A stretch of DNA of 64,000 nucleotides from Candidatus Magasanikbacteria bacterium RIFCSPHIGHO2_01_FULL_41_23. GTDB lineage: Bacteria; Patescibacteriota; Patescibacteriia; Magasanikbacterales; UBA922. The notes beneath the pieces were generated by a model. It saw nothing but the letters and a program-made list of their open reading frames with translations, was not told where the DNA came from and made no database searches. The stretch is taken from positions 13,162 to 77,161 of the forward strand of contig MFPT01000008.1 of the NCBI GenBank assembly GCA_001782805.1, in the 5' to 3' direction. The position numbers were made by a program, and so were the translations under genes. Positions 33,772 through 58,294 of the stretch are shown here, in pieces (position 1 is the stretch's first letter; every line of letters begins with the position of its first letter).

Positions 33772-35826
33772 ATGAAAAAAAATTATCCGCGCGCGTTGTG
33801 GTGGTTGACAGTGGCAACATTTTTAGTACCACTCATTGTATTGCCGTCATACTTTATTTTTCCGTTTATAGTTCCAAAGGTGTTGGTGTTTAGAACATTG
33901 GTTTTGTGTCAATTGGGAGTATTTTTGCTATGGTATTTTTCTAAACAGACAACGGTTCGGATAAGTCGAACACCGATTTCAATAGCGGTTTTATTTTTTT
34001 TCGCCAGTTTTACCTTATCCACTTTTTTTGGGACAGATTGGTATCATAGTTTTTGGGATAATCACGAACGCATGTTAGGTTTGTTTACGATTGCGCACTA
34101 TGTACTGTATTACTTTATAATTACCACGACTTTCAAAGAAATGGATACGTGGCGTCGGTTATTATTATATTTTGTCATGGCAGCCAGTGTTGTGTTGGCA
34201 ATAGCGTTATGGCAAAAAATTCAACCAAACTTTTTATTGAATAATAATAATGGTCGTACTTCGGCTACGTTGGGTAATGCCATCTATTTGGGAGGATATT
34301 GTGTTTGGCTTTTTTTTGTCAGTTGTTATCTGGCAGTTACGGATACATTGGTGTGGCGACGTTGGTTACTGGGTTGTCTCGCTGTTTTGGCGATTTTGGG
34401 AATTATTGCGAGCGGAACACGCGGTTCAGTCCTTGGATTGGTAGTAGGTTTGGTCATCTTGTTTATCGTCTATTTTTGTATTCTCCCAAAAGAAAAACAG
34501 CGCGAGCGACGTATTATTGGGGTTGGGGGAGCTGTGGCAGTGCTTGGTTTTTTGGTTTTGTTTGCTTTTAGAACCACGTCTCTCGTCGCTCATATTCCGG
34601 CAGTGGGAAGTTTGTTAAATACTAATTTTATCGCCGGCACAGCCAGTACTCGTATCATGGCTTGGAAAATCGCTTGGCAAGCGACGGAAGATCACCCATT
34701 GTTTGGTTGGGGACCAAACAATTTTGTCTATGCTTTTAATAAATATTATAATCCTAGATTTTTGGAACATGGATGGGGAGAAACGTGGTTTGATAACGCG
34801 CATAATATTATTATGAACACTCTGACCACTCAGGGATTTGTGGGACTCTTGGCGTATCTATCATTGTTTGGTGCTACATTTTGGCAATTATTTCGGGCGT
34901 TTAAAAAAAATCATTTGTCAGTTCATTTGGTGGCGCTCAGCTCGGGTTTTTTAGTGGCGCATCTGGTACAAAATATATTTGTCTTTGAAAATATTACGTC
35001 GTATTTGTTTTTCTTTTTTTATCTGGCTTTTATTAATAGTATAACGCATTCGACTGATAAATTAGCCACCAACGAGACAATGTTTCGGTCAGTGTTTGGT
35101 GGTGTGACGAGGGTAGCAATTTGGGTGATGGTGATATTATCAATTTGGGTGACTAATATTAGTCCGGCTCGAGCCAATATGGCCATGATTGATGTTTTTC
35201 GTACGATATATACGCAAGGCGATGTGGTAGCTGCTTATAATGGCGTATTGGCGATTAGTTCGCCTCATCACGATGATAATCGCATGGATATGGCTCGTTT
35301 GATAACTCAATCTGCGTCCGAGTATTTACGGATCGGCAAAAAAGTCGAAGCTCAGCGTTTATTGAATTTGGCAATTTCAGAGTTGGATAAAAATCGGCTT
35401 TTGCATCCCAATGATATTCGCAATCATATTCAAGAAGCGCAATTATTACAAATCACTTTTGATGTGTCTAAAAATCCCGATTATTTGTTTAAAGCGGAAA
35501 GACTTTTGGAAGAAGCGCAGGTTTTTTCTCCGGCACGGCAACAAATTCAGTATGTGTTATCGATTTTGAAGAGTATGCTGGGTAAGCATAATGAAGCGAT
35601 TGCTATTTTACGTAAAAGTGTGGCCGACAGTCCTACAATCCCCGAAGGATGGTGGCGATTAGCATATATTCTGCAAAATGCCAAAAAAATTGAAGAGGCA
35701 CAAAATGTAGTTCGTGAGGCACGAGCTCAAGGAATATTATTTATCGGAGTGGGTGAAAACGTTGTTAACGAGATTTTGCCATTACCGGTTTCACCGACCA
35801 GTACGACCGGAACTAAAACTAAATAG
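33772..35826 (+). CDS. O-antigen ligase / Wzy_C-like polytopic membrane protein with C-terminal TPR domain
   Basis: About 12 TM helices. Loop motif IASGTRGSVLGLVVGLV is Wzy_C-like. C-terminal ~230 aa has TPR-like helices. Confidence 0.6.
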   Translation: MKKNYPRALWWLTVATFLVPLIVLPSYFIFPFIVPKVLVFRTLVLCQLGVFLLWYFSKQTTVRISRTPISIAVLFFFASFTLSTFFGTDWYHSFWDNHERMLGLFTIAHYVLYYFIITTTFKEMDTWRRLLLYFVMAASVVLAIALWQKIQPNFLLNNNNGRTSATLGNAIYLGGYCVWLFFVSCYLAVTDTLVWRRWLLGCLAVLAILGIIASGTRGSVLGLVVGLVILFIVYFCILPKEKQRERRIIGVGGAVAVLGFLVLFAFRTTSLVAHIPAVGSLLNTNFIAGTASTRIMAWKIAWQATEDHPLFGWGPNNFVYAFNKYYNPRFLEHGWGETWFDNAHNIIMNTLTTQGFVGLLAYLSLFGATFWQLFRAFKKNHLSVHLVALSSGFLVAHLVQNIFVFENITSYLFFFFYLAFINSITHSTDKLATNETMFRSVFGGVTRVAIWVMVILSIWVTNISPARANMAMIDVFRTIYTQGDVVAAYNGVLAISSPHHDDNRMDMARLITQSASEYLRIGKKVEAQRLLNLAISELDKNRLLHPNDIRNHIQEAQLLQITFDVSKNPDYLFKAERLLEEAQVFSPARQQIQYVLSILKSMLGKHNEAIAILRKSVADSPTIPEGWWRLAYILQNAKKIEEAQNVVREARAQGILFIGVGENVVNEILPLPVSPTSTTGTKTK

Positions 35827-39754: not shown

Positions 39755-40902
39755 ATATTTTAATCGCGGCAGATATTTTTCCGCCTTTATCTGGTGGTCC
39801 GGCTACTTACGTGGTGGGTCTGGCAAACGCGTTAACTGCAAAAAATGTTGATGTAAAAATCATATCTCTCACACCGCAATCCGACATTACCAAAGTACAT
39901 TGTCCGATTTTTGTGGTCAGACAAAAAAATAAAATTCTGCGGTATTTGGAATATATTGGTTTACTGTTAAAGCATAGTCGTGAAGCTGATTGTATCTATG
40001 CCATGGGGCCGGTGAACGCCGGTTTGCCCGCTCTCGTTGTCTCAATATTGTTACGCAAAAAATTAATTGTTAAAGTTGTTGGAGATTATGCGTGGGAACA
40101 GGGAACGCAACGTTTTGGCGTTACTGATTTGATGGATGATTTCCAAACTAAAAAATATACTGGCGCAGTTGGTTGGTTGCAACGATTGGAACGTTTGGTT
40201 GTTCGACAGGCCGATCAGGTAATTGTTCCCAGCAATTATTTGCGGAAAATTGTTTTAGGTTGGGGCGCGCACGAGGAAAAAATATCGGTAATTTATAACG
40301 CGATTTCTTTATCAGCGTCTAATAATGGGGAGAATGTTTTGGTTAAACCAAATATTGAACAATGGATTGTGACTGTCGCGCGATTAACGCCGTGGAAAGG
40401 CATAAAAGAAATTATTGAAGTCTTGGTTGAATTAAAATCCCAATTTCCGAATGCGCGCTATAAAGTTGTGGGCGATGGGCCGGATTTGGATCGATTAAAA
40501 AAAACAATTCAAGATTGTCGGGCGGAAAATTATGTGGAATTATTGGGAAATCTCTCACATAAATTGGCTTTGGACTACATGAAATTATCTGACCTGGTAA
40601 TTTTAAATAGCGGCTATGAAGGCCTATCTCATGTTTTGGTCGAAGCTCTTAGTTTGGATTGTCGTGTTCTTGTCAGTGATATTGGTGGTAATCCGGAAGT
40701 GGTTATTCCTGGTGAGACAGGTGATGTGTTTCCGTATAATAATAAAGAAATTATTAAAGAAAAAATTGTTTTGGCATTAAACGGGAGTATGCCTAAACCA
40801 TTTAGTGCAAAAATTTCTCGCGCGGATTGGTTTAAAAAATTTACATTTGAGACAATGGTCAGTGAAACTAGAACTTTGTTGGAAAAAATATGCGCACATT
40901 AA
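39751..40902 (+). CDS. glycosyltransferase family 4
   Basis: ADIFPPLSGGPATYV. ILNSGYEGLSHVLVEALSLDCRVLVSDIGGNPE. 4-nt overlap with the upstream gene. Confidence 0.8.
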   Translation: MNILIAADIFPPLSGGPATYVVGLANALTAKNVDVKIISLTPQSDITKVHCPIFVVRQKNKILRYLEYIGLLLKHSREADCIYAMGPVNAGLPALVVSILLRKKLIVKVVGDYAWEQGTQRFGVTDLMDDFQTKKYTGAVGWLQRLERLVVRQADQVIVPSNYLRKIVLGWGAHEEKISVIYNAISLSASNNGENVLVKPNIEQWIVTVARLTPWKGIKEIIEVLVELKSQFPNARYKVVGDGPDLDRLKKTIQDCRAENYVELLGNLSHKLALDYMKLSDLVILNSGYEGLSHVLVEALSLDCRVLVSDIGGNPEVVIPGETGDVFPYNNKEIIKEKIVLALNGSMPKPFSAKISRADWFKKFTFETMVSETRTLLEKICAH

Positions 40903-41885
40903 TGCTTAGCCTTGACCAAGAAATTTTGAATCCCGATTCGCGCGTTGCCGCGCGGATGCGTTCGTATGGACAAAATAAAACCATTGATATTATTATTCCA
41001 TCGGTCAAAAATAATACCGTAAATTTGTCTCCAACGGTGACTGCGTATGGTAGTGGAGGAACGAAATGGCAACAATTTTTTTATCTTTTGAAGCGTGGTA
41101 GTGGATTATTACAATTAAATAATTATGAAATAATTACTGCCCAAGATCCTTTTTTGGTTGGTTTTGCGGGTATGCTGTTGAAGCAAAAAAAACAAATTTT
41201 TGAAATTCAAATTCACGGTGATTTTTTTGGCGGATCATATTATCGTAACAGTGGCTTGAAAAATTGGCTTTATTATTATCTGGCGCGATGGCTGGTGATT
41301 CCTTATGCCGATCAAATTCGAGTGGTGGGAGAACGAGTTAAACAGAGTATAATAAAATTAGGAATTCGAGAAGAAAAAATCAGTGTTCAGCCAATCGTCG
41401 TGCCGGTTAAAGAAATTCAAGAGTACATTCCCAAACAAAATGCGCATGATTTGTTTCCCGAATTTAATAAAATTTTTCTATGCCTTGGGCGACTGGATAC
41501 CGTAAAAAATGTAGGGTGGTTGATTGCTGTTTTTAATGATTATGTGCATAATAATCATGTTCCGGTTTTACTCCTCATTGCCGGCGATGGATCAGAGCGA
41601 AATCAGTTGGAAATACAGGTTAAAAATTTGGACGCAAAAAATTACATTCGTTTTTTGGGCGCGCTGAAAAATCCTTTGGATTATTTAAAAACAGTTGATT
41701 GTTTGTTGTTTCCCAGTTTGTCCGAAGGTTATGGATTAGTAGCTATGGAAGCGGCCGCGGCCGGAACCAAAATTATAATGAATGACGTAGGTGTGGCGAA
41801 TTATGAATTAAAAGCCAGTGAACGAGTAACAATTGTGGCGGTGAATGATTGGGTAGAATTTATGACTGCCTTAAAAAACATCTAG
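40890..41885 (+). CDS. glycosyltransferase family 4
   Basis: LFPSLSEGYGLVAMEAAAAGTKIIMNDVG. Confidence 0.75.
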   Translation: MRTLMLSLDQEILNPDSRVAARMRSYGQNKTIDIIIPSVKNNTVNLSPTVTAYGSGGTKWQQFFYLLKRGSGLLQLNNYEIITAQDPFLVGFAGMLLKQKKQIFEIQIHGDFFGGSYYRNSGLKNWLYYYLARWLVIPYADQIRVVGERVKQSIIKLGIREEKISVQPIVVPVKEIQEYIPKQNAHDLFPEFNKIFLCLGRLDTVKNVGWLIAVFNDYVHNNHVPVLLLIAGDGSERNQLEIQVKNLDAKNYIRFLGALKNPLDYLKTVDCLLFPSLSEGYGLVAMEAAAAGTKIIMNDVGVANYELKASERVTIVAVNDWVEFMTALKNI

Positions 41886-41906
41886 GTATTATGAAAAACA
41901 TTTAAT

Positions 41907-42770
41907 ATGCCGCATTTTTCTGCCGTCATCGTATCACTTCGACCAAAACAGTGGCTCAAAAACAGCTTTGTTTTGGCCGCGGTAATTTTTGTTGGGGCGT
42001 TTAATGATCCAGCAGTAGTGGGAAAAGCGTTAATCGCGGCCGCTATTTTTTGTTTGGCCTCGAGCGCTGTGTATATCGTGAATGATATTCGCGATGCTCC
42101 GGCCGATCGTCTGCATCCGACTAAAAAAAATCGGCCAATTGCGGCTGGCCAAATTTCAATATCTCACGCTTTTTTATTGGCCAGTGTTTTGGGAATCAGT
42201 GCCTTAATATTCGGGTGGTGGTTGCGACCGCAATTTGGCTTGGTTGTTGCTGCCTATATTATTGTGCAGATTTTTTATTCATTGTGGTTAAAGAAAATTG
42301 TCATTATTGATGTGATAACGATCGCTCTTGGTTTTGTAGCGCGCGTCGTGGCCGGTGCCGTGGCAATCAGTGTTTCATTTTCACCGTGGATTATTTTTTG
42401 TACATTTTTCTTGACATTATATTTGGCGATAACTAAACGACGGGAAGAATTGATTGTGGTAAATGGAACAGAGACGCGGACAGTTTTAGCTGATTATACG
42501 TCCGCGTTTTTGGATCAGATGAATGCGATTATTTTGCCTTTGACATTGGTGACGTATACTTTTTATACATTTGGTTCTCAGCATAGCCAGTGGCTCATGG
42601 TAACAGTGCCCGTGGTACTGTATGGATTGTTTCGGTATCAATATGTGAGCAATCGCACTATTGGTAATCACGATGGTCCGACTGATATTGTCTGGCAGGA
42701 TCGGCCGCTCCAGATAACACTTATTTTGTGGATCATGATCGCGGCTATGATTATTTGGTTTTTTGATTAA
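41907..42770 (+). CDS. UbiA-family prenyltransferase, decaprenyl-phosphate phosphoribosyltransferase (DPPR synthase)-like
   Basis: NDIRDAPADRLHPTKKNRPIAAGQIS (Asp-rich UbiA motif 1). 8-9 TM helices. This family is frequent in CPR glycan loci. Confidence 0.7.
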   Translation: MPHFSAVIVSLRPKQWLKNSFVLAAVIFVGAFNDPAVVGKALIAAAIFCLASSAVYIVNDIRDAPADRLHPTKKNRPIAAGQISISHAFLLASVLGISALIFGWWLRPQFGLVVAAYIIVQIFYSLWLKKIVIIDVITIALGFVARVVAGAVAISVSFSPWIIFCTFFLTLYLAITKRREELIVVNGTETRTVLADYTSAFLDQMNAIILPLTLVTYTFYTFGSQHSQWLMVTVPVVLYGLFRYQYVSNRTIGNHDGPTDIVWQDRPLQITLILWIMIAAMIIWFFD

Positions 42771-43242
42771 TATGTCATTTGCCACTGCGCCAATTTTTGA
42801 TCAATTAGAATTGTCCGAAATTAATCGAACAATTATTTTGGATATTGATGGAACATTGGTGCCGGATGGTGAAGAAGATTGTTCGGAAAAGACACGGGCA
42901 AAAGTAATGAACTTAATGAAAAATAATAACGTGGTCTTGTTTTCCAATTCTAAAAATACTGAACGTGGTAAAAAAATGGCCAATGCTTTGGGAATTTCAT
43001 TTTTGTCCGCGGATAAAAATAAGCCAAATCCGGCGGTAATTATGGCCACTGGTCGACGGGTCGGGGATTGTACTGTGATTGGTGATAAATTTTTGACTGA
43101 TTATTTGTTGGCAGTATTCAGTGGCGCGCGCTTTGTGCCAGTACGAAGAATATATTCGGGACGAGAATCGTTTAAAATAAAAATAATTTATTTGGTTGAT
43201 GATTTTTTTAATTTTTTATCCCGACTGGTCGGAATTGGTTAG
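42763..43242 (+). CDS. HAD-superfamily phosphatase
   Basis: Motif I ILDIDGTLVPDG. Small 159-aa HAD fold, overlapping the UbiA gene by 8 nt. Confidence 0.6.
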   Translation: MINMSFATAPIFDQLELSEINRTIILDIDGTLVPDGEEDCSEKTRAKVMNLMKNNNVVLFSNSKNTERGKKMANALGISFLSADKNKPNPAVIMATGRRVGDCTVIGDKFLTDYLLAVFSGARFVPVRRIYSGRESFKIKIIYLVDDFFNFLSRLVGIG

Positions 43243-43251
43243 TCAAAAAAT

Positions 43252-44307
43252 ATGTTGGAAAATAATTCTGTCCAATTCTATTTAATTACCGGCGGATCTG
43301 GTTTTTTGGGTATTAATTTGACGCGGTATTTGTTGGTGCAAGGACATCGCGTTCGTACCTTGGATTTGTTGCCTTTTGATTATCCTGAATCCGATCGAGT
43401 GGAGGCGATTATCGGTGATATTCGGGATAAAGAATGTGTTGATACGGCGATGAAAAATATTGACATTGTCGTGCATGCGGCCGCGGCTTTGCCGCTGTAT
43501 TCTGAGGAAGATATTATGACGACTGATGTGAATGGAACCGGAAATATTTTGACCAGCGCATTCACGCACAATGTGCAACGCGTTATTCATATTTCTTCTA
43601 CGGCAGTATATGGAATTCCGGATCATCATCCATTGCTGGAAACCGATAAGCTCGACGGTGTCGGCTCGTACGGCCAAGCCAAAATTTTGGCCGAAGAAGA
43701 ATGTTTGAAATTTCGCGCTAATGGCCAATGCGTTCCGATTATTCGTCCTAAATCTTTTGTGGGGCCTGAGCGTTTGGGAGTATTTGCTTTGTTTTATGAT
43801 TGGGCCAAAGACGGACATAATTTTCCCATGATTGGTAATGGTAAAAATCAATATCAATTGCTGGATGTGGAAGATTTGTGTGTGGCGATTTATTTGTGCG
43901 CGATCAAAGATCGCATCGTAGTGAATGATACTTTTAACATTGGTGCCAAAGAATTTACGACTATGGGAGAGGATTATCAGGCAGTTTTGGATCGCGCGGG
44001 TTTTGGTAAAAAAATTATTGGTTTGCCAGCCGTGCCAGTTATTTTGACTTTGCGTTTGTTGGAAGCTTTGAGATTATCGCCACTATACAAATGGGTATAT
44101 GAAACCGCGCATAAAGATTCCTTTGTTTCTATAGAAAAGGCTGAACAAAAATTGGATTGGCATCCCAGATTTTCCAATAAGCAGGCATTAGTCAAAAATT
44201 ACGAATGGTATTTGGCTAACTTGAAAAGTTTTGCCGGAAAATCCGGTGTTTCGCACCGTGTGCCGTGGAAACAGGGGATACTGGGATTGGTAAAATTATT
44301 CTTTTGA
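43252..44307 (+). CDS. NAD-dependent epimerase/dehydratase family SDR
   Basis: ITGGSGFLGINLTRYLLVQGHRV Rossmann motif. YGQAKILAEEE contains YxxxK. Confidence 0.7.
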   Translation: MLENNSVQFYLITGGSGFLGINLTRYLLVQGHRVRTLDLLPFDYPESDRVEAIIGDIRDKECVDTAMKNIDIVVHAAAALPLYSEEDIMTTDVNGTGNILTSAFTHNVQRVIHISSTAVYGIPDHHPLLETDKLDGVGSYGQAKILAEEECLKFRANGQCVPIIRPKSFVGPERLGVFALFYDWAKDGHNFPMIGNGKNQYQLLDVEDLCVAIYLCAIKDRIVVNDTFNIGAKEFTTMGEDYQAVLDRAGFGKKIIGLPAVPVILTLRLLEALRLSPLYKWVYETAHKDSFVSIEKAEQKLDWHPRFSNKQALVKNYEWYLANLKSFAGKSGVSHRVPWKQGILGLVKLFF

Positions 44308-44325
44308 AGACATCAAGAAATAAAT

Positions 44326-45396
44326 ATGAAATTGTTGGTAATTACTCAAAAAGTTGACAAAAATGATTCTAATTTGGGATTTTTTCACGCTTGGCTGGAA
44401 AAAATCGCTCAGCGCGTGGATTATTTGTATGTCATCTGTTTAGAAAAAGGAGAGTATTCTTTGCCTGAAAATGTTACGGTCTTGTCGCTTGGTAAAGAAG
44501 AAAATCGATCGCGGCTAAAATATCTTTGGCGTTTTTATTTTTATATTTTTAAATATGAGAAAGAATACGATGGAGTTTTGGTACACATGAATCCGGAATA
44601 TATTGTTTTGGGAGGATGGTTGTGGCGGCTTTGGCAGAAGAAAGTTTTATTATGGTACACGCATAAATCAGTGGATTTGAAATTAAAAATTGCGGAAAAA
44701 TTGGTCACAAAAATTTTTACCGCATCAAAAGAAAGTTTTCGTTTAAAGAGCAATAAAGTTGAAATTGTTGGGCATGGGATTAATGTCGCAGAATTTTGGT
44801 CATCAACAAGCTCAGGACGAGCATATTATGACCAGAACTTGGTACTGAAATTAATTACCGTGGGCAGAATCGCTCCAGCAAAGGATTTGGAAACTATTAT
44901 TAAAGCCGTTGTTTATTTAATTGAAAAAAAATCAGGATTGTCTGTTTCGCTCGATATTATTGGCGAAGCGATTTTGCCGCAGGATATTGTGTATCAAGAA
45001 AATTTAAAAAATAAATACGCGCAATTTTCCCAGACGATTAAATTTTTAGGCAAAAGAAATCATCAAGAGATGCCAAAGGAATATCAAAGTCATCAACTTT
45101 TCGTACATTCAAGCAAAACGGGGAGTGTTGATAAAGTTGTGCTGGAAGCTTTGGCCTCAGGCTGCCCAGTGGTGACATCAGGTGAAGCTTATGCCGACGC
45201 TGTGCAACAAGGAGTCGTCTTTGTTTTTCCTATTGGAGATTATAAAAAATTAGCTGAAGCTATTGAAAAAACCCAGAGTTCTGGCATACTTAACTCGGAT
45301 AAATTGCCAAATGTGTCTGCGATTGAATATGTGCGGAAAAATCATAATCTGGATTTATTAATAAATAGAATTCAAGGTTATTTTAGCCAAAAATAA
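44326..45396 (+). CDS. glycosyltransferase family 4
   Basis: [35 protein letters not shown]. Confidence 0.7.
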
Positions 45397-45397
45397 T

Positions 45398-46093
45398 ATG
45401 AAATTGTCGATTGTGGTGCCAGTGTATAATGAAGCCAAGACAATTATTTCACTTTTGGCCGCGGTTGAGGCGGTGGCTTTGCCTAACCTAGAGAAAGAAA
45501 TAATTATTGTCGATGATGGTTCAACTGACGGCACGTGTGATATTTTAAAAGGATTGTCCGGATCATTATATACAATTCATTTTCAGGGAAAAAATCAAGG
45601 TAAGGGAGCGGCGCTGCGTCAGGGTTTTTCTTTGGCTACTGGCGATTTTATTATTATTCAAGACGCGGATTTGGAATATGATCCAGAAGAGTATCCGTTG
45701 TTATTGGGGCCTCTCCAAAGTGGAAAAGCCGATGTAGTATTTGGTTCTCGTTTTATCGGGGATCGGCCGCATCGAGTTTTATTTTTTTGGCATTCAGTGG
45801 GAAATAAATTGTTGACAATTTTTTCTAATATGCTGACTGACTTGAATTTGACTGATATGGAAACGTGTTACAAAGCGTTTACGCGTGAAGCTTTGCAGAA
45901 AATTTTGCCACAATTAACCGCCAATCGATTTAATATTGAACCGGAAATTACCGCGCGCGTGGCTAAAGCCAACTTAAGGATTTATGAAGTTGGAGTTTCA
46001 TATTATGGTCGTACTTATGAAGAGGGTAAAAAAATTGGCATAAAAGATGGTTTTTGTGCGCTTTGGGCGATTATCAAATTTAACCTCCTTTAG
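45398..46093 (+). CDS. glycosyltransferase family 2 (polyprenol-phosphate sugar synthase, DPM1-like)
   Basis: [14 protein letters not shown] ... [11 protein letters not shown] ... [14 protein letters not shown]. Soluble, 231 aa. Confidence 0.8.
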
Positions 46094-46095
46094 TT

Positions 46096-47328
46096 ATGGA
46101 AAATAAAGGCAAAATTTTAATTGTTACGCCACGTTTCCCCATACCGACCGCCGGTGCTTGTGAGCAAGACCGGTTGGAAGGGATCAAACAGCTTAAGCGT
46201 CTCGGATATGATATCAGAGTGATAGGAAAAATTTTTGATTTCCAAGACAAAAGTAAAATTGAATCTTTTTCAAAAGAGTTTGGTATCCACGTGGAAACGG
46301 TGCCATATATCTATACAAGGAAAAGAGATCATTTGGAAAAAATACGTTATTATATAAAACGATTTTTGTGGCCACCGTATTGGGACGGCGCGGCCGCTGA
46401 GTTTACTGAGCCGAACATCCGGCGCGTTGTTAGGGAATCTCTGCAAACATTTAAGCCCGATGTTGTTTGGTTTGACTATACCTATCTGTGGCCTTTGTAT
46501 AAGGAAATTAAACAGAAAAATATTCCTATTATTACTCGTTCAATTAATTTTGAACCTCGACATTTTCTTGAAGAAGATGGCCTATCGTTGATCAATCTTA
46601 TTCGTTGCCTCCCCAAGTTTATAAGTGAAATATTGGTAGCCAGGAGGAGTGACTGCATAGTTGCTCTTAATCCCAATGAAGCGAAAATATATGCAGCACT
46701 TGGTGCGAAACAAGTTTTTGTCCTTCCTTTACGAAAATTACCAGCTCTCATCGGAAAAAATACTGATATAAAAGACAATCACCCGTTACATGTTTTATAT
46801 ATGAGTTCTTCTTATACGGTTGCTCATAATCAGAGAGCGCTTCGCCTTCTCTTGAATAAAATAATTCCAATAATTCATCAAAAATATCCTAATCAATTCG
46901 TATTTCATTTTTCTGGATCAAAACTCCCGCCCAGCTTGTTTACTTTTATTGATGGCAAGACAGTAAAATATGAAGGTTATATTCCCATTGACCAGATGGA
47001 GTCTTTTTTGGCGAGGATTGATATTGTGGTAAGCCCATCTTCAAAAAAAGTAGGAATGCAACAGAAAGTCTTTGAGCCTCTAGTGCGGGGAATACCTCTT
47101 GTTACCTCTCCTTGCAATATTGTCGGTTATCCTTTTTATCACGAAGAGTCTGTCCTACTCGCTGTCACTCCGGATCAGTATGTGGATGCTTTACAAAAAC
47201 TTCGAGATTATGATCTTCGTAAAAAATTATCAAAAAATGCGGTGGATATAGCCACTACTTTATTTTCCAGGGAAATAGTAGATTCAACCGGTCAGTCAAT
47301 TATTGACAGTACTAAGAAATTAGACTAA
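46096..47328 (+). CDS. glycosyltransferase, GT4-like (divergent)
   Basis: C-terminal VVSPSSKKVGMQQKVFEPLVRGIPLVTS resembles the GT1-fold E-x7-E region. Weaker match than the other GT4 genes here. Confidence 0.5.
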   Translation: MENKGKILIVTPRFPIPTAGACEQDRLEGIKQLKRLGYDIRVIGKIFDFQDKSKIESFSKEFGIHVETVPYIYTRKRDHLEKIRYYIKRFLWPPYWDGAAAEFTEPNIRRVVRESLQTFKPDVVWFDYTYLWPLYKEIKQKNIPIITRSINFEPRHFLEEDGLSLINLIRCLPKFISEILVARRSDCIVALNPNEAKIYAALGAKQVFVLPLRKLPALIGKNTDIKDNHPLHVLYMSSSYTVAHNQRALRLLLNKIIPIIHQKYPNQFVFHFSGSKLPPSLFTFIDGKTVKYEGYIPIDQMESFLARIDIVVSPSSKKVGMQQKVFEPLVRGIPLVTSPCNIVGYPFYHEESVLLAVTPDQYVDALQKLRDYDLRKKLSKNAVDIATTLFSREIVDSTGQSIIDSTKKLD

Positions 47329-47369
47329 GATAATCTTTATTAAGTAGTAAATAGAATGATAAAATAAGT

Positions 47370-48653
47370 ATGAAAAAAATACAGGCTAGCACAAAAGAAA
47401 GAAAAACGTGTAGAATCTCAGGAGAAAAATTGATTCCACTTTTCTCTTTGGGTGAATTATTTGTTTCTGATTTTATTGCAGATGGTGTCTCGCCTCAACA
47501 AAAAAAAGTAGAATTACAATTTTGTCTTGCACCAAAATCAGGATTAGTTCAACTCGCACACTCAGCACCCGTTGATGATATGTATAGAAATTATTGGTAC
47601 CGATCAGGGACTAATACTGCCATGAAGGGTGAATTACGACAAATTGCTGAATCAGCACAGGCACTTGTCCGACATGAGAGAGGTGATTTGTTTGTTGATA
47701 TTGGGTGTAATGACGGCACCCTTTTAAGTTTTGTAGACACGACCATGGTTCGAGTGGGGTTTGATCCAGCAAAAAATAACTTTAAAGAGGCATCTAAAAA
47801 ATATGCAAATTTAATTATCAATGATTATTTTACGGCAGCATCTTTTTTAAAATCACGTTTCAAGAATAAAAAGGCAAAAATCATTACATCAATTGCCATG
47901 TTCTATGACTTGGAAGATCCGCACGCCTTTGTAGAAGATGTAAAATCTATCCTTGATACAGAAGGGTTATGGGTCATTCAGATGAGCTATCTTCCTCTCA
48001 TGTTACAGCAGTTAGCTTTTGATAATATTTGCCATGAACATTTAGAATATTATAGTCTTTCTTCATTGAAATTTTTGTTAGACAAACACGGTTTGGTGAT
48101 AGTAGATTGTCAATTAAATGATATAAACGGAGGGAGCTTTCGAATCTATATTAGAAAACAGGAGGCGAACCCGATCACTTTCGCAAATGCTCCGTGGAGA
48201 GATGTGGCTCGGTATCGAGTAGCCAGCATCCTTTCTCACGAAGAAAAATTAAAGCTAAAAGATGTCCAGACTTATAAAGAGTTCTATTTTCAAATAGAAC
48301 TTTTAAAGAAAAAGACTGTTTCCTTCATTAAGAAAGAAAAAGCCAAGGGGAAGAAAATCTGGGCATACGGAGCCTCTACAAAAGGTAATACTTTGCTGCA
48401 ATGGTTTGGACTTGATCATACTCTGATAGATGGTGTGGCCGAAAGACAGTCTACGAAATATGGGCTAAAGACTATTGGTACAAATATTCCCATTTATTCT
48501 GAATCAGTCATGCGCGACGCCAAGCCTGATTATGCTCTGGTCTTGCCATGGCACTTTATAGAAGAATTTCAAAGACGAGAACAGGATTTTTTAAAAAGCG
48601 GAGGAAAATTCATCGTGCCATGTCCTCAATTTGAGATTTTATCCTACTCATAA
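47370..48653 (+). CDS. SAM-dependent sugar C-methyltransferase (TylCIII/NDP-hexose C-methyltransferase-like)
   Basis: Class I MTase core [16 protein letters not shown]-terminal domain [21 protein letters not shown]...[15 protein letters not shown] matches the C-methyltransferase C-terminal domain pattern. Confidence 0.65.
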
Positions 48654-48666
48654 TGAAGCTGTTCGT

Positions 48667-49656
48667 ATGAATAATAGTAAGAAAGCTTTAATTACTGGTA
48701 TTTCTGGACAAGACGGTAGCTATCTTGCTGAATTATTATTGTCCAAAGGATATGAGGTGCATGGTATTGTCCGTCGATCAAGTAGCGTGGTCAGGGAACG
48801 GCTGGAACATTTGTATCCACAATATCAAAATAAACTTTTATTCCTCCATTATGGCGATATGATGGATGGTAGTAGTCTTGCTCGTTTGCTTTACACTATT
48901 CAGCCGGATGAAATTTATAATCTAGCTGCCCAAAGCCACGTTAAAATTAGTTTTGATATTCCCGAGTATACTGCCGATGTTGGTGCTATCGGAGTTGTTC
49001 GTCTGTTGGAGTCAATACGTGATACCGGTATTAAGACTAAATTCTATCAAGCCTCTAGTAGTGAAATGTTTGGAAAAATTTTAGAAACACCACAAAAAGA
49101 AACCACACCATTTTATCCGCGCAGTCCCTATGCTTGCGCCAAAGCTTTTGCACATTACATTGCGGTTAATTACCGCGAGAGCTATGGTTTATTCACTTGT
49201 GGTGGCATTTTGTTTAATCATGAATCGCCACGCCGCGGAGAGAATTTTGTTACTCGTAAAATTACTCTTGGCGTAGCGAGTATATTGGCCGGTAAAGAGA
49301 AGAATATACACCTAGGCAATTTAGATGCCAAGCGTGATTGGGGGTATGCGCCTGATTATGTAGAGGCAATGTGGCGGATGTTGCAGTACCCTGAACCAGA
49401 TGATTATGTAATCGCGACCGAGGAAACACACTCAGTAAGAGAATTTGCTGAAGAAGCTTTCAAATTGGTAAATCTCGATTGGGAAAAGTATGTAATTGCA
49501 GACGAAAAATATTTTCGTCCTGCGGAAGTCGATTTATTGGTTGGTGATGCTACAAAAGCTCGCGAAAAATTGGGTTGGCGGCCGACTATCAAGTTTAAAC
49601 AACTCGTAAAAATAATGGTAGAGGCGGACTGCGAGACGCTTGGTATTAGTATTTAA
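48667..49656 (+). CDS. gmd: GDP-mannose 4,6-dehydratase
   Basis: [56 protein letters not shown] (YxxxK). The whole length resembles Gmd. ATG 48667 is used as the start. Confidence 0.85.
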
Positions 49657-49674
49657 GAGTTAGCGCAAAATTAA

Positions 49675-50658
49675 ATGTCAAAAAAGACGGCTTTTATAAC
49701 TGGAATTACCGGTCAAGACGGCGCGTATCTGGCGCAGTTTTTGTTAGAAAAAAAATATCAGGTAATCGGCTTAACTCATTCCTCGGAACGTCAAAGAATG
49801 TGGCGCTTGGATTATCTGGGTATACACGATCGAATAAAAATAATTTCAGGAAGTCTTCTTAATAACAAGTTCATAAAAAAAATACTGAGCGAGTACCAAC
49901 CACGGGAAATATACAATTTGGCGGGCGAATCAAATGTCGCAAAGTCTTGGGAACATCCGCAGGATACCTTCTTAATTAATAGTTTTGTCGTGGCTCAGTT
50001 GTTGGAGAATATTCGAGTGTACGCCCCTACCACCCGACTATTTCAAGCTTCCAGTGCCGAAATTTATGGCAACTCGTTACAACCAGCTACTGAAGAAATC
50101 AATTCTTTTTCGCCTTTGAATCCCTATGCTACTTCAAAATTGGCGGCACATTTTTTGATAAGAAATTACCGCGAACAATATAATTTATTTTTAAGCAACG
50201 GGGTGTTATTTACACATACTTCGCCGCTGCAAATAGATTCCGCCTTCGTTAAAAATATCGTCCGCGGTGTAGCTAAAATTTTTTTGGGTCAGACGGATTG
50301 TATTATTATTGGAGATATTCGTATGCAAAGAGATTTTTCTTTTGCCGGCGATGTAGTTGGTGCGATGTGGCTGATACTGCAACAAAAACAGCCACGAGAT
50401 TTTATTATTTCTTCCGGCATTACTCGAACTGTAGAAGAGTTTGTTGAATTAGCTTTTGAGTGTGTTGGTATTAAAAAATGGCGTCGGTATATTAGAAAAA
50501 ATCCGGAGTTAATTGGAAAACGAAGTTTACGAAAAATGTCAGGCTCTAACGAGGCTTTAAAAAAAATTGGCTGGAAGCCAAAGGTCAGCCTAGACCAGTT
50601 AGTAAACATGATGATGGATTTTGAGTTAAAAAATACCAAAAAAGATTTTATTTTATGA
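49675..50658 (+). CDS. Gmd-paralog SDR, probable GDP-4-keto-6-deoxy-D-mannose reductase (Rmd-like)
   Basis: AFITGITGQDGAYLAQFLLEKKYQVIGL. YATSKLAAHFLIRNYREQYNLF. Immediately follows gmd, the usual gmd-rmd arrangement for GDP-D-rhamnose. Confidence 0.55.
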   Translation: MSKKTAFITGITGQDGAYLAQFLLEKKYQVIGLTHSSERQRMWRLDYLGIHDRIKIISGSLLNNKFIKKILSEYQPREIYNLAGESNVAKSWEHPQDTFLINSFVVAQLLENIRVYAPTTRLFQASSAEIYGNSLQPATEEINSFSPLNPYATSKLAAHFLIRNYREQYNLFLSNGVLFTHTSPLQIDSAFVKNIVRGVAKIFLGQTDCIIIGDIRMQRDFSFAGDVVGAMWLILQQKQPRDFIISSGITRTVEEFVELAFECVGIKKWRRYIRKNPELIGKRSLRKMSGSNEALKKIGWKPKVSLDQLVNMMMDFELKNTKKDFIL

Positions 50659-52949
50659 ATGAAAAAATATTTATTTCCATTGCCACTTATAATGAAAAGG
50701 AAAATATAGAAAAACTAATTCGAAGAATTTTTGATCTAAAGATTAATAATTTGTCAGTGATAGTAGTGGACGACAATTCACCTGATGGCACTAGTGCAGT
50801 GGTGAAAAAAATGCAAAATCAATTTCCTTCTATTTTTTTGATTGAACGTTCAGACAAGTTGGGTTACGGAGCTGCTCACAAGGTCGCTTTTGTTAAGGCT
50901 CTAGAAAGTGGGGCAGAAATAATTATTTCAATGGATGCGGATTTCTCTCATGATCCAAATGAAATACCGAATTTAATTACTCAAATTGAAAAAGGCTATG
51001 ATGTTGTTGTAGGTTCACGTAAAGTAAATGGTGGAAAAATTGTCGGCTGGGGTTTATGGAGAAAATTTTGTAGCATCGGAGCTACTGTGGTTGCCAGATT
51101 GGTACTGGGTATTAGGACTCGTGATTTGACAACCGGCTTTAGAGCGTACAAAAGAAAGGTATTTGAAATTATCAGTATCGATGAAATCACGAGCACAGGG
51201 TATTCTTTTTTGGAAGAATCCATTTACCTGATAGAAAAATACGATTTTAATGTCAAAGAAATTCCCGTAGTGTTTTTAAACAGGGAGTACGGAAAATCCA
51301 AATTAACGTGGCAGGAAATCATTTATTTTTTTAAAACCATTTTTGAATTAAGAATTAATTCATGGAATAAATTTTTTTTGAATAAACAAAATATTCCTTT
51401 AATTTTATTGAGCGTTTCTTTTTTTATTGGTATATGGCATGCTCTGCCGATGTTAGATGTCGTAGGAGACGAAATGTATTATGTCGGGGGTGTTTTAAGA
51501 GCGATGGAAAACTTTACTTTGATACCCGCGTTCGGAGAAGTGCCCTATGGCACTATAACTTATTTACTGAATTATGTTTTAATTGGCGGATTTGTCTTGA
51601 TACTTTTTTTCTTTTTCGAATTTAATATATACAATTTAAAACTTTTTTTAATACAATCGCCTGGGATAATGTATTTGATACCAAGACTGTTAAGCGCATT
51701 TTTAGCAATGGTTTATTTGGGTTTATTCAACAAAGTCTTAAAAAGAGAAATAAAGGATTATAAAAGTCGGATGTTTATTCTAGTTTTAACATTTACTAAC
51801 ATGCTGATTGTTTCCGTACTTCATACGGGAAAAATGTGGATTTTGAGCACACTCTTAGTTTTGATTTCTTTTTATTACCTTTTTCAAACTTTAGATAGCG
51901 AAATAAATTTGGATAAGAGTAAAAAAAATGGGTACATTTTTTTGAGCATTTTATTTGGTTTTTTGGCTACTGCAAACTTTATTTTTTTTGGTTTTGCCCT
52001 TATAAATATTCCATTACTTTTGATATTTTTTAGACGTGATAAAGAAAAACAAATAAAGATATTGAAATACACGTTTATTTCTTTGTTAGTTTTTGCAGTC
52101 ATTCTTTGTCTGAATTTTGCCAACACCAAGGAATTGATTATGGGGCTGTGGATTGAACGTAATCAGACAGCAGTAGGGCAGAATTTGACTATTATGAGTT
52201 CTTTTTGGCTTTATTTTAAGAAAATTTTAGTTTTTTTCCCATTGCATATTTTGGCTATTGCTTTGACCTTGAAAGAAAATATTAAAAATAAAAAACTCTT
52301 TGTAATCTCAGTTATTTATTTTTTTACTTATTTTATTTTAGTTTCCGTAATTGGTACACGGTCATTCACCGTTTACGCCTATTATCGCTATGTGTTTCCA
52401 CTCGGATTTTTTTTATCCCTGATTTTAATCAGTTTAAATTTTAAATTTAGAAAATATTTTTATATAATCAGTGCGATTTCCATATTTTATTTTATTTTTA
52501 TTCTTTATTTTATTTCCGTTCCTACTACCTATAACAAAGCTCATAATTGGGTTATAAATAATTTGAATCAGGGAAATGTGGTAGTATTAAATGGAATTCG
52601 TCTTTTGGAATTGCCTAAAAATAAGGAATCTTATATGTCGTACCAGAAAGAAGCGTGTGCCACTAAGTGTCGTAATACCATAGATAATAATCTGAATGCA
52701 AGTATAAAATTTTTTACCAAAGATTGGCATAGTGAACCTAGTACGGTACCCGTGGCTGGTAGCGAGGTATATTATATTGAATACGACCAAAATCCGAAAG
52801 TCGGACAGGAACAAGTGGCTGAATTTTCAAACAAGGCGAATAACGCATTTGACCTTGAGACACATGTGGCAAATTATTTTGATCTTGATTTTTTTCATAT
52901 CAAAAATTTTGGATCAGATATTTTTATTTACAAAGATAAAATTAAATGA
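50655..52949 (+). CDS. fusion protein: N-terminal GT2 polyprenol-phosphate glycosyltransferase plus C-terminal polytopic GT-C-like membrane domain
   Basis: IFISIATYNEKENI ... VIVVDDNSPDGT ... MDADFSHDPNEIP (GT2). It is followed by more than 12 TM helices over ~500 aa. Confidence 0.7.
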   Translation: MNEKIFISIATYNEKENIEKLIRRIFDLKINNLSVIVVDDNSPDGTSAVVKKMQNQFPSIFLIERSDKLGYGAAHKVAFVKALESGAEIIISMDADFSHDPNEIPNLITQIEKGYDVVVGSRKVNGGKIVGWGLWRKFCSIGATVVARLVLGIRTRDLTTGFRAYKRKVFEIISIDEITSTGYSFLEESIYLIEKYDFNVKEIPVVFLNREYGKSKLTWQEIIYFFKTIFELRINSWNKFFLNKQNIPLILLSVSFFIGIWHALPMLDVVGDEMYYVGGVLRAMENFTLIPAFGEVPYGTITYLLNYVLIGGFVLILFFFFEFNIYNLKLFLIQSPGIMYLIPRLLSAFLAMVYLGLFNKVLKREIKDYKSRMFILVLTFTNMLIVSVLHTGKMWILSTLLVLISFYYLFQTLDSEINLDKSKKNGYIFLSILFGFLATANFIFFGFALINIPLLLIFFRRDKEKQIKILKYTFISLLVFAVILCLNFANTKELIMGLWIERNQTAVGQNLTIMSSFWLYFKKILVFFPLHILAIALTLKENIKNKKLFVISVIYFFTYFILVSVIGTRSFTVYAYYRYVFPLGFFLSLILISLNFKFRKYFYIISAISIFYFIFILYFISVPTTYNKAHNWVINNLNQGNVVVLNGIRLLELPKNKESYMSYQKEACATKCRNTIDNNLNASIKFFTKDWHSEPSTVPVAGSEVYYIEYDQNPKVGQEQVAEFSNKANNAFDLETHVANYFDLDFFHIKNFGSDIFIYKDKIK

Positions 52950-52983
52950 ATTTGAACCCAAGCGGTCAGAAAGATGATTAAGT

Positions 52984-54333
52984 ATGAACTGGAGTATTTT
53001 GAAAAAAATTAAAGATAAAAAATCATATTCAATTATTATTTTCTTGGTAATTTTTTGTGTTACGTTGGGTTACTCGTTCTATCACAGAATCGAGCCTGTA
53101 GTAGACGCCAAAGCGTACGATAAAATAGCAGTCAATCTGGTCAATGGGTTTGGTTTTAGGGAAGATCGTACACAGAACTATCAGTTTGATACGGCAATTA
53201 TTAGGGCTGGTCCGGGCTATGAATTTTTTTTGGCGACTATTTACAACGTGTTTGGCTATCATTATGAAGCAGTCTGGATTATTCAGGCTATTCTTCATGT
53301 ACTTTCCGCTCTTTTGTTATTTTTTATCAGTCGTAAATTATTTGTGGAAAAAGGTGAGCAGATTGGTTTAATTGCCGCCGGTCTCTTTGGCTTTCATCCT
53401 GATCTGATTGAGATTTCTGCCATGCTTATGACAGAGACGCTCTATCTGTTTTTTATTATTCTCGTGGCATGGTTTTTGGTAGATAGCTACCAAGCTTTGC
53501 GACGAACGTTTTGGCACAGCATAGTATTTGGTTTGGTGACCGGCTTTGCCATCCTCACTCGTCCGACCGTTATCTTGTTTATTGTAGTCATTGGAGCTTT
53601 CTGTCTGTATCAAAAAAAATACCGTATTTTATTTTTATTTGGTCTGGGATTGGTGGCAACGCTCACGCCCTGGGTTATACACAATTATCTTATTTTTCAT
53701 CAATTTATCTTGACCACCCTTATTGGGAGCTATAATCTGTGGGTAGGGAATACGCTTTTGGCGAATGGTGGACAAATTGCCGGCGGTTTTAACCCTCTCA
53801 CTACCTATACTGCCGTGCACGGATTTTTTAATTTAAAAGAGCAGGCGAATCAGGAGTTTCTGACCTTTGTTTTTACCTATCCGTTCGTTTTTTTGAAACT
53901 GGTCGCGCTTCGTTTTATCCGCTACTTTAGTCTAATCCGTCCGATGGGTTTTTGGTTTTACCAAACTGGTTTTAGCCAAGCTCTTTTTGTGGCATCTTCG
54001 GCTTTTGCTCAAGCACTACTTTTCGTCTGTGGTTTTTCTGGTATGCTGGTGGCATGGCGAACCAGGCAACTACTATGGCGGTATCTTGTTATTCTGGCTT
54101 TAATGGCACCCATCCCACTTATCGCCACAGTTGTCGAATCACGTTATCGTTTTCAAATTTATCCTTTTTTAGCTTTGTTCGGTGGCTATGCAATAGTGCA
54201 GTGGGAACAAAAACTAAGCTGGTTTAAACAGAGGTATTTTATGATCCCATTTTTGTTTTTTGTAATAGTGAGTATTATCGATTTATTTTTGTTTAGCGAT
54301 GTGGTATTAGAACACTTAAATCGCCTATTTTAA
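52984..54333 (+). CDS. GT-C family membrane glycosyltransferase (ArnT/PMT-like, GT39/GT83)
   Basis: Polytopic protein. First periplasmic loop carries the acidic motif IEPVVDAKAYDKIAV (DxD/AKxYD-like). Architecture typical of polyprenyl-phosphate-sugar-dependent transferases. Confidence 0.65.
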   Translation: MNWSILKKIKDKKSYSIIIFLVIFCVTLGYSFYHRIEPVVDAKAYDKIAVNLVNGFGFREDRTQNYQFDTAIIRAGPGYEFFLATIYNVFGYHYEAVWIIQAILHVLSALLLFFISRKLFVEKGEQIGLIAAGLFGFHPDLIEISAMLMTETLYLFFIILVAWFLVDSYQALRRTFWHSIVFGLVTGFAILTRPTVILFIVVIGAFCLYQKKYRILFLFGLGLVATLTPWVIHNYLIFHQFILTTLIGSYNLWVGNTLLANGGQIAGGFNPLTTYTAVHGFFNLKEQANQEFLTFVFTYPFVFLKLVALRFIRYFSLIRPMGFWFYQTGFSQALFVASSAFAQALLFVCGFSGMLVAWRTRQLLWRYLVILALMAPIPLIATVVESRYRFQIYPFLALFGGYAIVQWEQKLSWFKQRYFMIPFLFFVIVSIIDLFLFSDVVLEHLNRLF

Positions 54334-54336
54334 AGT

Positions 54337-55773: not shown

Positions 55774-56507
55774 ATATTTTTGAACTCTCGGTTGTGATTC
55801 CGGTTTTTAATGGCGCTGATTTTATTGGACAGTCGCTATCCGCATTGCGCGAGTGGCGTGATTCTCAAGCATCCAAAAGCGTTGAAATTATTATCGTGAA
55901 TGACGGCAGTACTGATGGCACGGCTAAAATTTTATCTTCTCAAATTCAAAATTTTGTTGGCTTGAAAATTATCAATCTGGATTCGAATGAAGGAAAGGGC
56001 GTGGCAATTCGAGCGGGGTTGCAAATGGCGACCGGTGAATATAGTGTGTATACTGACGCTGACTTGCCCTACGGAGTAAAAGTGCTGGGAAATATGTTGG
56101 AAGAAATGAAAAAATATCCGACATTGGATTTCCTGTATGGCTCGCGGACTCATTTTGAGTCAGGCGTGGAAAAGGAATATGGGCTCGTGCGAAAACTGGG
56201 ACGATTATTTTTTTCTGGCGTGGTGCGCGGCTTGGTTTTGTCTGATATCCCTGACACGCAATGCGGCATAAAAATGATGCGCCAGTCATTGGTGAAATTG
56301 GTTGTGGCAAGATCAGTAATCTCGCGTTTTGCTTTTGACATTGAAGTATTTGTTTTGGTCAAAGCGAGAAAATTGCCGATGAAAGATTTTCCCGTACTGC
56401 TCAATCATCGCAAAGAAAGTAGTGTGCGCATTATCAAGGATACGGCAGTGATGTTGATGGATATTTTTTTAATTAAAAAAAATCAGCGAAAAGGTGTATA
56501 TAATTAG
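55770..56507 (+). CDS. glycosyltransferase family 2 (DPM1/GtrB-like polyprenol-phosphate sugar synthase)
   Basis: LSVVIPVFNGADFI ... IIVNDGSTDGT ... YTDADLPYG. Confidence 0.8.
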   Translation: MNIFELSVVIPVFNGADFIGQSLSALREWRDSQASKSVEIIIVNDGSTDGTAKILSSQIQNFVGLKIINLDSNEGKGVAIRAGLQMATGEYSVYTDADLPYGVKVLGNMLEEMKKYPTLDFLYGSRTHFESGVEKEYGLVRKLGRLFFSGVVRGLVLSDIPDTQCGIKMMRQSLVKLVVARSVISRFAFDIEVFVLVKARKLPMKDFPVLLNHRKESSVRIIKDTAVMLMDIFLIKKNQRKGVYN

Positions 56508-56508
56508 T

Positions 56509-58293: not shown

Positions 58294-58294
58294 T

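Follow-up and report, generated by a model that had tools for sequence, protein, structure and literature searches.

A putative lipid-linked pentofuranose donor module, comprising a UbiA-family phosphoribosyltransferase, an HAD phosphatase and a conserved SDR protein, in a surface-glycan operon of Candidatus Magasanikbacteria

In the sections of Kelly et al. (2024; PMC11127046) cited here, the C. youngae ORF15 protein, a fusion of an HAD-type phosphoribose phosphatase with a synthase resembling decaprenyl-phosphate phosphoribosyltransferase (DPPRS), converts phosphoribosyl pyrophosphate (PRPP) into undecaprenyl-phospho-ribofuranose, ORF14 of the MATE family is the predicted flippase, and ORF12, a glycosyltransferase of the GT-C class (GT136), attaches the sugar in the periplasm. 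A single short-chain dehydrogenase/reductase (SDR), ORF13, converts the side-chain ribofuranose of serotype O2 into its C3 epimer, xylofuranose; according to the same sections, candidate xylofuranose systems carry an ORF13 homologue and arabinofuranose systems carry homologues of DprE1 and DprE2. Orthologues of DprE1 and DprE2 are also encoded by noeH and noeO of the rhizobial noeCHOP/noeN arabinosylation operon, as described in the cited part of PMC5080398. The present analysis concerns three adjacent genes, encoding a UbiA-family protein, an HAD protein and an SDR protein, which probably form a module for a lipid-linked pentofuranose donor in Candidatus Magasanikbacteria bacterium RIFCSPHIGHO2_01_FULL_41_23; the window referred to throughout is the whole 64,000-nucleotide stretch analysed (contig MFPT01000008.1, positions 13,162 to 77,161). 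This host belongs to the Candidate Phyla Radiation (CPR), a group of bacteria that live attached to other cells and whose surface chemistry is, to our knowledge, almost unknown. If the reading is correct, this pathway would represent one concrete route of sugar decoration in CPR bacteria with named genes.

The ORF (open reading frame) listing and Pfam scans of the 64-kb window, which covered 31 proteins or protein parts, place the three genes in a row on the plus strand with UbiA, HAD and Epimerase assignments, exactly as a preliminary description made from the letters alone had claimed. The features are as follows.

41907..42770, plus strand: putative UbiA-family polyprenyl-phosphate 5-phosphoribosyltransferase (PPPRS/DPPRS type), 287 amino acids (aa), 8–9 membrane spans
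42763..43242, plus strand: HAD-IIIA phosphatase, 159 aa, proposed polyprenyl-phospho-ribose-5-phosphate 5'-phosphatase
43252..44307, plus strand: extended SDR with a GalE-like fold, 351 aa, proposed NAD-dependent epimerase with a polyprenyl-phospho-ribofuranose substrate
40890..63968, plus strand: surface-glycan operon containing the trio, 21 genes in one direction, spaced by -23 to 65 nucleotides (nt)

The HAD gene starts with TTG and overlaps the UbiA stop by 8 nt, with an ATG three codons further in. The source genome comprises 0.99 Mb in 24 contigs and has a marker-gene completeness of 100%.

The mycobacterial decaprenyl-phospho-arabinose pathway begins with an enzyme of the same family, Rv3806c (8j8j, E 4.5e-42) being the only solved relative of the window UbiA protein, and the proposed order of steps runs in parallel, from phosphoribosyl transfer through dephosphorylation and a change at a ring carbon to use by a GT-C enzyme. 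Unlike that pathway, the window carries an HAD phosphatase and not one of the type of Rv3807c, which we take to be a PAP2 protein, and no DprE1-type flavoenzyme was found in the source genome; DprE2, moreover, is a classical short SDR, whereas the window SDR is extended and GalE-like with 351 residues. The cited part of PMC11127046 describes Rv3807c as unrelated to the HAD phosphoribose phosphatases.

Resemblance to the C. youngae O1/O2 systems, as far as the cited sections describe them, lies in a DPPRS-type UbiA protein with the same essential N and D residues, a 5-phosphate phosphatase of the HAD superfamily, one SDR (GxxGxxG, YxxxK) with a putative auxiliary role as epimerase, and the presence of GT-C genes in the glycan locus itself. 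The window differs in that a gene of its own encodes the phosphatase, which is of the HAD-IIIA type (YqeG/PGP-phosphatase-like) rather than an NF006088-type fusion half, in that neither MATE nor another flippase family was found in the operon, in the PMT_2 type of its GT-C genes, and in its CPR host. A further comparison is offered by the UbiA-SMR-GMC-SDR cluster of plasmid pNGR234a, which likewise combines a DPPRS-type UbiA protein with redox enzymes and small transporters, and whose SDR is 35% identical to the window SDR and its reciprocal best match; this cluster also encodes a second SDR and a GMC oxidoreductase, neither with a counterpart in the window genome. A literature search returned no paper on decaprenyl-phosphate phosphoribosyltransferase in the Candidate Phyla Radiation, and one on xylofuranose, polyprenyl epimerase and phosphoribosyltransferase returned only Kelly et al. 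(PMC11127046) as relevant. This kind of system has been known since 2024, and comparative sequence evidence supports the pathway logic; what sets this locus apart is the free-standing HAD-IIIA protein, the PMT_2-type GT-C candidates, the operon in which no flippase family was found, and the exceptionally conserved SDR.

Analysis of the UbiA protein supports its placement with the Rv3806c (DPPR synthase) type rather than with the quinone, haem or chlorophyll prenyltransferases. Pfam UbiA matches residues 23–247 with 100.9 bits, and two NCBIfam models, both named decaprenyl-phosphate phosphoribosyltransferase, are passed (NF008977, 244.3 bits with a cut-off of 234; NF008978, 223 bits with a cut-off of 207). 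NF008976 scores 175.5 bits, under its cut-off of 474, and the next-best UbiA model outside the DPPRS group reaches 58.5 bits. At E ≤ 0.01 the only PDB matches are 8j8j and 8j8k, both of Rv3806c, the decaprenyl-phosphate phosphoribosyltransferase (E 4.5e-42), and the alignment to 8j8j is full-length (residues 6–281). Eight hydrophobic segments are detected by a simple hydropathy scan, which fits the polytopic UbiA fold of about nine helices. The clade check named in the preliminary description thus falls on the Rv3806c side, away from the quinone and chlorophyll families, and the DPPR-synthase-like NDxxDxxxD motif that it had noted is present at residues 59–67 (N59-D60-x-x-D63-x-x-x-D67). This motif, which in this enzyme type belongs to cytoplasmic loop II, and a second one, the R/E motif of loop IV, here KRxxEL at residues 177–182 (K177-R-x-x-E-L182), are aligned with the same residues in 8j8j. 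From profile coordinates, N59, D60, D63 and D67 would correspond to N247, D248, D251 and D255 of ORF15, residues reported as required for activity in the cited sections of Kelly et al. (PMC11127046).

The SDR protein scores 130.3 bits with Pfam Epimerase and carries the NAD-binding motif G14-x-x-G17-x-x-G20, the residues S115/S116/T117, and Y140-x-x-x-K144 (YGQAK), without the dehydratase-type TDE acid/base pair. In a search of 5.8 billion proteins, the best 120 relatives (query excluded) are 71–81% identical and have generic names; where a source is named, it is a CPR lineage or a member of Chloroflexota. A search of species genomes confirmed 569 relatives, the best 80 of which are all 69–76% identical, and an alignment of 26 sequences has well over 100 invariant columns. 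A tree of the best 80 together with the window protein is largely phylum-coherent, Chloroflexota requiring 3 changes versus 25.4 in shuffles and Ignavibacteriota 1, so that the conservation reflects constraint rather than recent spread. On sequence comparison, the SDR protein belongs to a family without a name that is exceptionally conserved across phyla. The UbiA relatives, by contrast, are divergent (30–40% identity), which argues against a conserved UbiA–SDR interface.

Within the SDR tree, three proteins labelled 'uncultured Gammaproteobacteria' (L019, L030, L041) lie inside the CPR group, and two others, labelled Bacteroidetes (L012) and Pleurocapsa (L034), lie inside Chloroflexota; these mismatches between label and tree suggest mis-binning of the contigs or transfer of the genes. 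Residues 333–351 form a C-terminal tail of the SDR whose pattern, HRVPWKQG..L...K..F, is shared without change by all 26 sequences compared, which come from many phyla; the tail is modelled with a predicted local distance difference test score (pLDDT) below 50 and could be membrane-binding or partner-binding.

Conservation of the three genes as a set was assessed in 80 loci, each holding one of the best 80 SDR relatives. A same-strand UbiA relative lies in the examined flanks of 18 of the 80 loci, an HAD-IIIA type in 11, and both in 10, in the orders UbiA-SDR-HAD, HAD-UbiA-SDR and UbiA-HAD-SDR. The trio is thereby confirmed as an arrangement that exceeds chance. Adjacency of SDR and UbiA is typical for the CPR side of the SDR tree, and genomes with a solitary SDR encode the UbiA type elsewhere above cut-off (5/5). 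A putative UbiA::SDR fusion in locus L036 was rejected, since the translation has a stop codon between both genes.

At the level of whole genomes, 201 CPR genomes (source genome included; SDR at E ≤ 1e-60, UbiA type at E ≤ 1e-20) and 151 Chloroflexota genomes were sampled. The CPR sample contains the SDR in 10 genomes and the UbiA type in 45, both occurring together in 9 of the 10 SDR genomes; the lone SDR genome without the UbiA type has a broken gene copy and is 84% complete. All 26 SDR-positive Chloroflexota genomes fall within the 103 that carry the UbiA type, a set including two unpublished genomes (G243, G350), both SDR-negative. The corresponding nominal p-values, 6e-6 for CPR and 1.5e-5 for Chloroflexota, overstate the association because related genomes are non-independent. 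The reverse nesting is absent, as 36 of the 45 UbiA-positive CPR genomes have no SDR, which fits an SDR that is an optional, auxiliary enzyme to the UbiA pathway.

Beyond these close relatives, remote SDR homologues (35–51% identical) adjoin UbiA genes on three plasmids, accompanied by an SMR transporter on pNGR234a, a GT-C/GT39 enzyme on a Natronococcus plasmid and a GT2 enzyme on a Streptomyces plasmid; the phosphatases there are of other kinds, PHP in Natronococcus and endonuclease/exonuclease/phosphatase in Streptomyces. A 6.6-kb record labelled 'Bacteriophage sp.' from human faecal samples (MT837543.1) also encodes relatives of both proteins about 1 kb apart, at 36% identity for UbiA and 30.5% for the SDR.

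The HAD protein is matched by Pfam PGP_phosphatase (26.7 bits) and Hydrolase_3 (22.6 bits) and by the HAD-SF-IIIA model (36.2 bits), while a sequence search against solved structures returned no match at E ≤ 1. Four motifs are recognised, D27-x-D29-G-T, S61-N, K87 and G-D108-K-x-x-T-D113, and all four are kept in 12 of 12 aligned proteins, namely the window protein and 11 relatives from SDR loci. PGP phosphatase, the nearest Pfam family, acts on a lipid head-group phosphate. The HAD-IIIA type and UbiA form a single ORF in two loci (L010, L030), and in a third (L041) the HAD-IIIA type is the C-terminus of a 10-span membrane protein adjoining the UbiA gene.

A housekeeping role as a YqeG-type phosphatase, with a place in the operon due to chance, is barely credible for the HAD protein. 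It shares core HAD motifs, small size and best profile matches with YqeG (TIGR01668) and mitochondrial PGP phosphatase (PF09419), and YqeG is its best NCBIfam model (E 5.1e-16), yet the score of 58.7 bits lies below the curated cut-off of 89.1, and, unlike YqeG, the type is part of the UbiA module, as a neighbour or as a fusion, in a non-housekeeping context: beside SDR or UbiA in the 11 loci counted above, within UbiA fusions in two and in a polytopic fusion in one. The preliminary description had named a match to a housekeeping family such as YqeG as a check on its reading; the outcome is borderline by profile score, and the context is not a housekeeping one. Collectively, the fusions, the shuffled yet conserved adjacency and the nested co-occurrence support a functional tie of HAD and SDR to UbiA, as judged from comparative genomics.

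The HAD portion of NF006088, a fusion model that gives the 489-aa protein of pNGR234a 617 bits, does not match the window HAD; DPPRS-type UbiA enzymes therefore seem to have recruited HAD proteins from two or more lineages. A 148-aa gene downstream of UbiA in locus L090 was considered as an HAD type and rejected (BLASTP E 0.46). Next to the UbiA gene in locus L019 lies a GT87::HAD_2 fusion, with the HAD domain again at the C-terminus of a polytopic protein; the fusions in L019 and L041 link phosphatase and transferase on one chain.

Taken as a pathway, the module would operate in successive steps. By family membership, the UbiA protein would move 5-phosphoribose from PRPP onto polyprenyl phosphate at the cytoplasmic membrane face, and the HAD-IIIA protein, judged by context and fusions, would take off the 5-phosphate to give polyprenyl-phospho-ribofuranose. 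The SDR, to judge from its co-occurrence and one published precedent, would then use bound NAD to oxidise and re-reduce one ring hydroxyl, acting as a one-enzyme epimerase. Flipping of the donor would then fall to a transporter from another locus or to a polytopic protein of no assigned family, and a GT-C enzyme, for which the product of 52984–54333 is the best candidate, would transfer the sugar outside the cytoplasm to the operon's glycan.

The assignment of oxidation and reduction to a single SDR, as the preliminary description had it, is supported by the gene content of the source genome and by the precedent of ORF13 in the cited sections of PMC11127046. The source genome has no ALO domain match, MurB (272 bits, cut-off 259) is its single FAD_binding_4 protein, and no homologue of the pNGR234a GMC oxidoreductase was found in it; with no DprE1-type oxidase in the genome, one SDR for both half-reactions is the economical reading. 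A DNA search of E. coli genomes, made toward a comparison with ORF13, gave no match.

Which sugar is made is a separate matter, and here the arabinose identity given in the preliminary description is no better supported than xylose: within the cited sections of PMC11127046, the single SDR yields xylofuranose and arabinofuranose loci carry DprE1/DprE2. By analogy, the C3 epimer, xylofuranose, is tentatively the most likely product, and the C2 epimer, arabinofuranose, is a doubtful though serious candidate; the remainder falls to another redox change or to no change. Equally doubtful, then, is the corresponding proposal that the SDR is a single-enzyme 2'-epimerase making polyprenyl-phospho-arabinofuranose by a route free of DprE1/DprE2. 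The UbiA type is present and neither a DprE1-like nor a GMC oxidase was found in the genome, the GalE-like catalytic set of the SDR suits transient oxidation and reduction, and CDP-tyvelose 2-epimerase, a distant match (1orr, E 9e-9), is a solved extended-SDR precedent for chemistry at C2. Every arabinofuranose locus in the cited sections of PMC11127046, however, has DprE1/DprE2 homologues, the SDR type going with xylofuranose; the rhizobial noeCHOP operon also uses the DprE1/DprE2 orthologues, as the cited part of PMC5080398 states, and nothing in the present data favours C2 over C3.

More doubtful still is the broader proposal that the SDR family is a universal one-enzyme polyprenyl-phospho-ribofuranose epimerase, here giving an arabinofuranose donor without DprE1/DprE2. 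If that were true, SDR and UbiA together would mark a widespread, so far unseen pentofuranose envelope glycan in CPR, Chloroflexota and Ignavibacteriota. Irrespective of the carbon concerned, the SDR constitutes the most useful lead from this locus, being about 70% identical from CPR to Chloroflexota and Ignavibacteriota and occurring nearly only with the UbiA type. Assignment of its reaction to C2 or C3 would annotate at least 569 relatives in one genome collection and would show whether arabinofuranose donors arise without the DprE1/DprE2 pair.

Use of the donor would fall to the operon itself, nearly all 21 genes of which are devoted to glycan synthesis: they include GT4 and GT2 enzymes, a C-methyltransferase, a GDP-mannose 4,6-dehydratase pair, an AsnB-like enzyme, methyltransferases and a nucleotidyltransferase. 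The proteins most relevant to donor synthesis, transfer and export are as follows.

45398..46093, plus strand: GT2, AglJ/Dpm1-like, possible polyprenyl-phosphate hexose synthase, 231 aa, Glycos_transf_2 116.7 bits
50655..52949, plus strand: GT2 fused to about 11 predicted spans, 764 aa, Glycos_transf_2 96.3 bits
52984..54333, plus strand: GT-C (PMT_2) polytopic glycosyltransferase, 449 aa, PMT_2 43.7 bits (cut-off 26.1), about 11 predicted spans
54337..55773, plus strand: second GT-C (PMT_2) polytopic glycosyltransferase, 478 aa, PMT_2 46.6 bits, about 10 predicted spans
60062..61555, within the plus-strand operon: protein with about 12 predicted spans, 497 aa, no Pfam or NCBIfam family

The preliminary description had counted three GT-C enzymes within 12 kb. 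Two stand, as PMT_2 proteins above cut-off encoded 8.7–11.5 kb downstream of the trio in the same operon; the third is probably the product of 50655–52949, whose C-terminal 549 aa matched no Pfam family in the scan. Pairwise BLASTP among the polytopic proteins of the window revealed no meaningful similarity, including between both PMT_2 proteins. The product of 52984–54333 is the best candidate user of a lipid-linked pentose: in locus L038, the genes UbiA-SDR-HAD are preceded, at a distance of 1.1 kb, by a homologue with 35% identity. In locus L073, from Magasanikbacteria, the order is UbiA-SDR-gene-GT2-PMT_2, and the GT2 there is 44% identical to that of 45398–46093. More widely, Pfam scanning of all 22 non-UbiA polytopic ORFs of UbiA-bearing loci gave GT-C families above cut-off in 5 of the 18 UbiA+SDR loci, with nine polytopic proteins there of no family; the density of polytopic ORFs is 24 per 250 kb in UbiA-positive loci versus 29 per 829 kb in the other loci.

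Several observations weigh against the pathway as drawn, and the first concern the SDR itself. Its fold is typical of nucleotide-sugar enzymes, the model gives no indication of a lipid substrate in particular, and the choice of epimerised carbon comes by analogy. The AlphaFold model (pLDDT 83.5) has nucleotide-sugar epimerases and dehydratases as its best PDB neighbours (TM score 0.7–0.75); sequence and fold comparison with the PDB yields generic extended-SDR neighbours only, which do not discriminate the substrate, and ESM Atlas neighbours carry only generic 'epimerase/dehydratase' cluster names. In Chloroflexota and Ignavibacteriota, furthermore, the SDR and UbiA genes are not neighbours: the SDR lies among unrelated genes, and UbiA adjoins mevalonate-pathway or methylmalonyl-CoA mutase genes rather than glycan genes. 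Specifically, in three of three Chloroflexota-type loci (L092–L094; genomes G001–G003) the UbiA gene is co-directional with a mevalonate kinase gene (TIGR00549, 251 bits) and divergent from a diphosphomevalonate-decarboxylase-like gene, and in two metagenome-assembled genomes (MAGs) of Ignavibacteriota/Bacteroidota (L090, L091) it follows methylmalonyl-CoA mutase.

In an alternative interpretation, the pathway ends at polyprenyl-phospho-ribofuranose, and the SDR works as an ordinary nucleotide-sugar epimerase or reductase for the neighbouring GT4 and GT2 enzymes, its adjacency to UbiA arising only from shared glycan operons. Its best structural and sequence neighbours are indeed UDP- and dTDP-sugar enzymes, further nucleotide-sugar genes lie in the operon, and the 36 UbiA-positive CPR genomes that have no SDR indicate that the UbiA pathway works without it. 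Such a role is nevertheless improbable, as SDR genomes nearly always carry the UbiA type (9/10, 26/26, 5/5), the Chloroflexota SDR remains about 70% identical even though it is solitary and away from glycan genes, and homologues of 30–51% identity adjoin UbiA in archaea, actinobacteria, rhizobia and the phage record.

The supply of the phosphoribose donor presents a further difficulty for the proposed module. No PRPP synthetase was found in the source genome (24 contigs, completeness 100%), nor was AMP phosphorylase, and no PhnN match exceeded its cut-off. Of the 201 CPR genomes sampled, 61 have a PRPP synthetase match (G159, among these, is unpublished), and of the 45 UbiA-positive ones only 11 do; that most UbiA-type CPR genomes have no recognisable PRPP synthetase constitutes a separate metabolic puzzle. 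The source genome does encode PRPP-dependent Apt and PyrE, both above cut-off, so that PRPP is presumably available somehow, which limits the weight of the missing synthetase; PRPP might conceivably come from Apt or PyrE running in reverse with pyrophosphate, or the donor might be other than PRPP.

The second of these options belongs to an alternative in which the UbiA protein uses another donor, or is a prenyltransferase of lipid metabolism, with HAD and SDR acting on its product. We regard this as quite improbable. Both the missing PRPP synthetase, in this genome and in 34 of the 45 UbiA-type CPR genomes, and the mevalonate kinase and mevalonate decarboxylase-like neighbours of UbiA in the three Chloroflexota-type loci would fit it, but those neighbours fit just as well with a role in supplying the polyprenyl phosphate acceptor. 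Moreover, two DPPRS models are passed with other UbiA families far below, the donor-binding ND/D residues are conserved, and PRPP is expected where PRPP-dependent Apt and PyrE are kept.

The remaining points concern the later steps of the proposed pentofuranose pathway. Three GT2 genes resembling polyprenyl-phosphate hexose synthases lie in the operon, namely 45398–46093, the N-terminus of 50655–52949, and 55770–56507, so that the GT-C enzymes may use other donors. The first scores 122 bits with TIGR04182 AglJ, which has a cut-off of 325; the second is best matched in NCBIfam by dolichyl-phosphate hexose transferase (73.8 bits, below cut-off), and this protein could be a rival donor synthase, maybe even donor synthase and transferase in one, which would make it the third GT-C. 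The proposal of the preliminary description that the pathway feeds GT-C glycosylation accordingly stays plausible, given the neighbours in L038 and L073, and loses its exclusivity to these rival GT2 genes. Finally, no flippase family (MATE, SMR, GtrA) appeared in the Pfam scans of the 31 window proteins or parts, and GtrA and Wzx-like candidates occur on other contigs or 23 kb away; the product of 60062–61555 is a candidate flippase, polymerase or GT-C.

Additional features of the window lie outside the module. An Rfam scan detected one tRNA, and a GC-rich block spans window positions 2000–10000 (0.56–0.61 versus about 0.39 elsewhere) without an rRNA match. Within the operon, positions 47370–50658 encode a sugar C-methyltransferase (Methyltransf_14, 154 bits), after which come a GDP-mannose 4,6-dehydratase (462 bits) and another SDR of the GDP_Man_Dehyd type; this suggests a C-methylated 6-deoxyhexose in the operon's glycan. 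Upstream of the operon lies one further feature.

33772..35826, plus strand: Wzy_C (O-antigen ligase/polymerase-like) protein with TPR repeats, 684 aa, Wzy_C 77.7 bits

Large Wzy_C proteins recur near the UbiA–SDR module in unrelated MAGs (the window, L019, L030 and L036), and those of the window, L030 and L036 carry TPR repeats.

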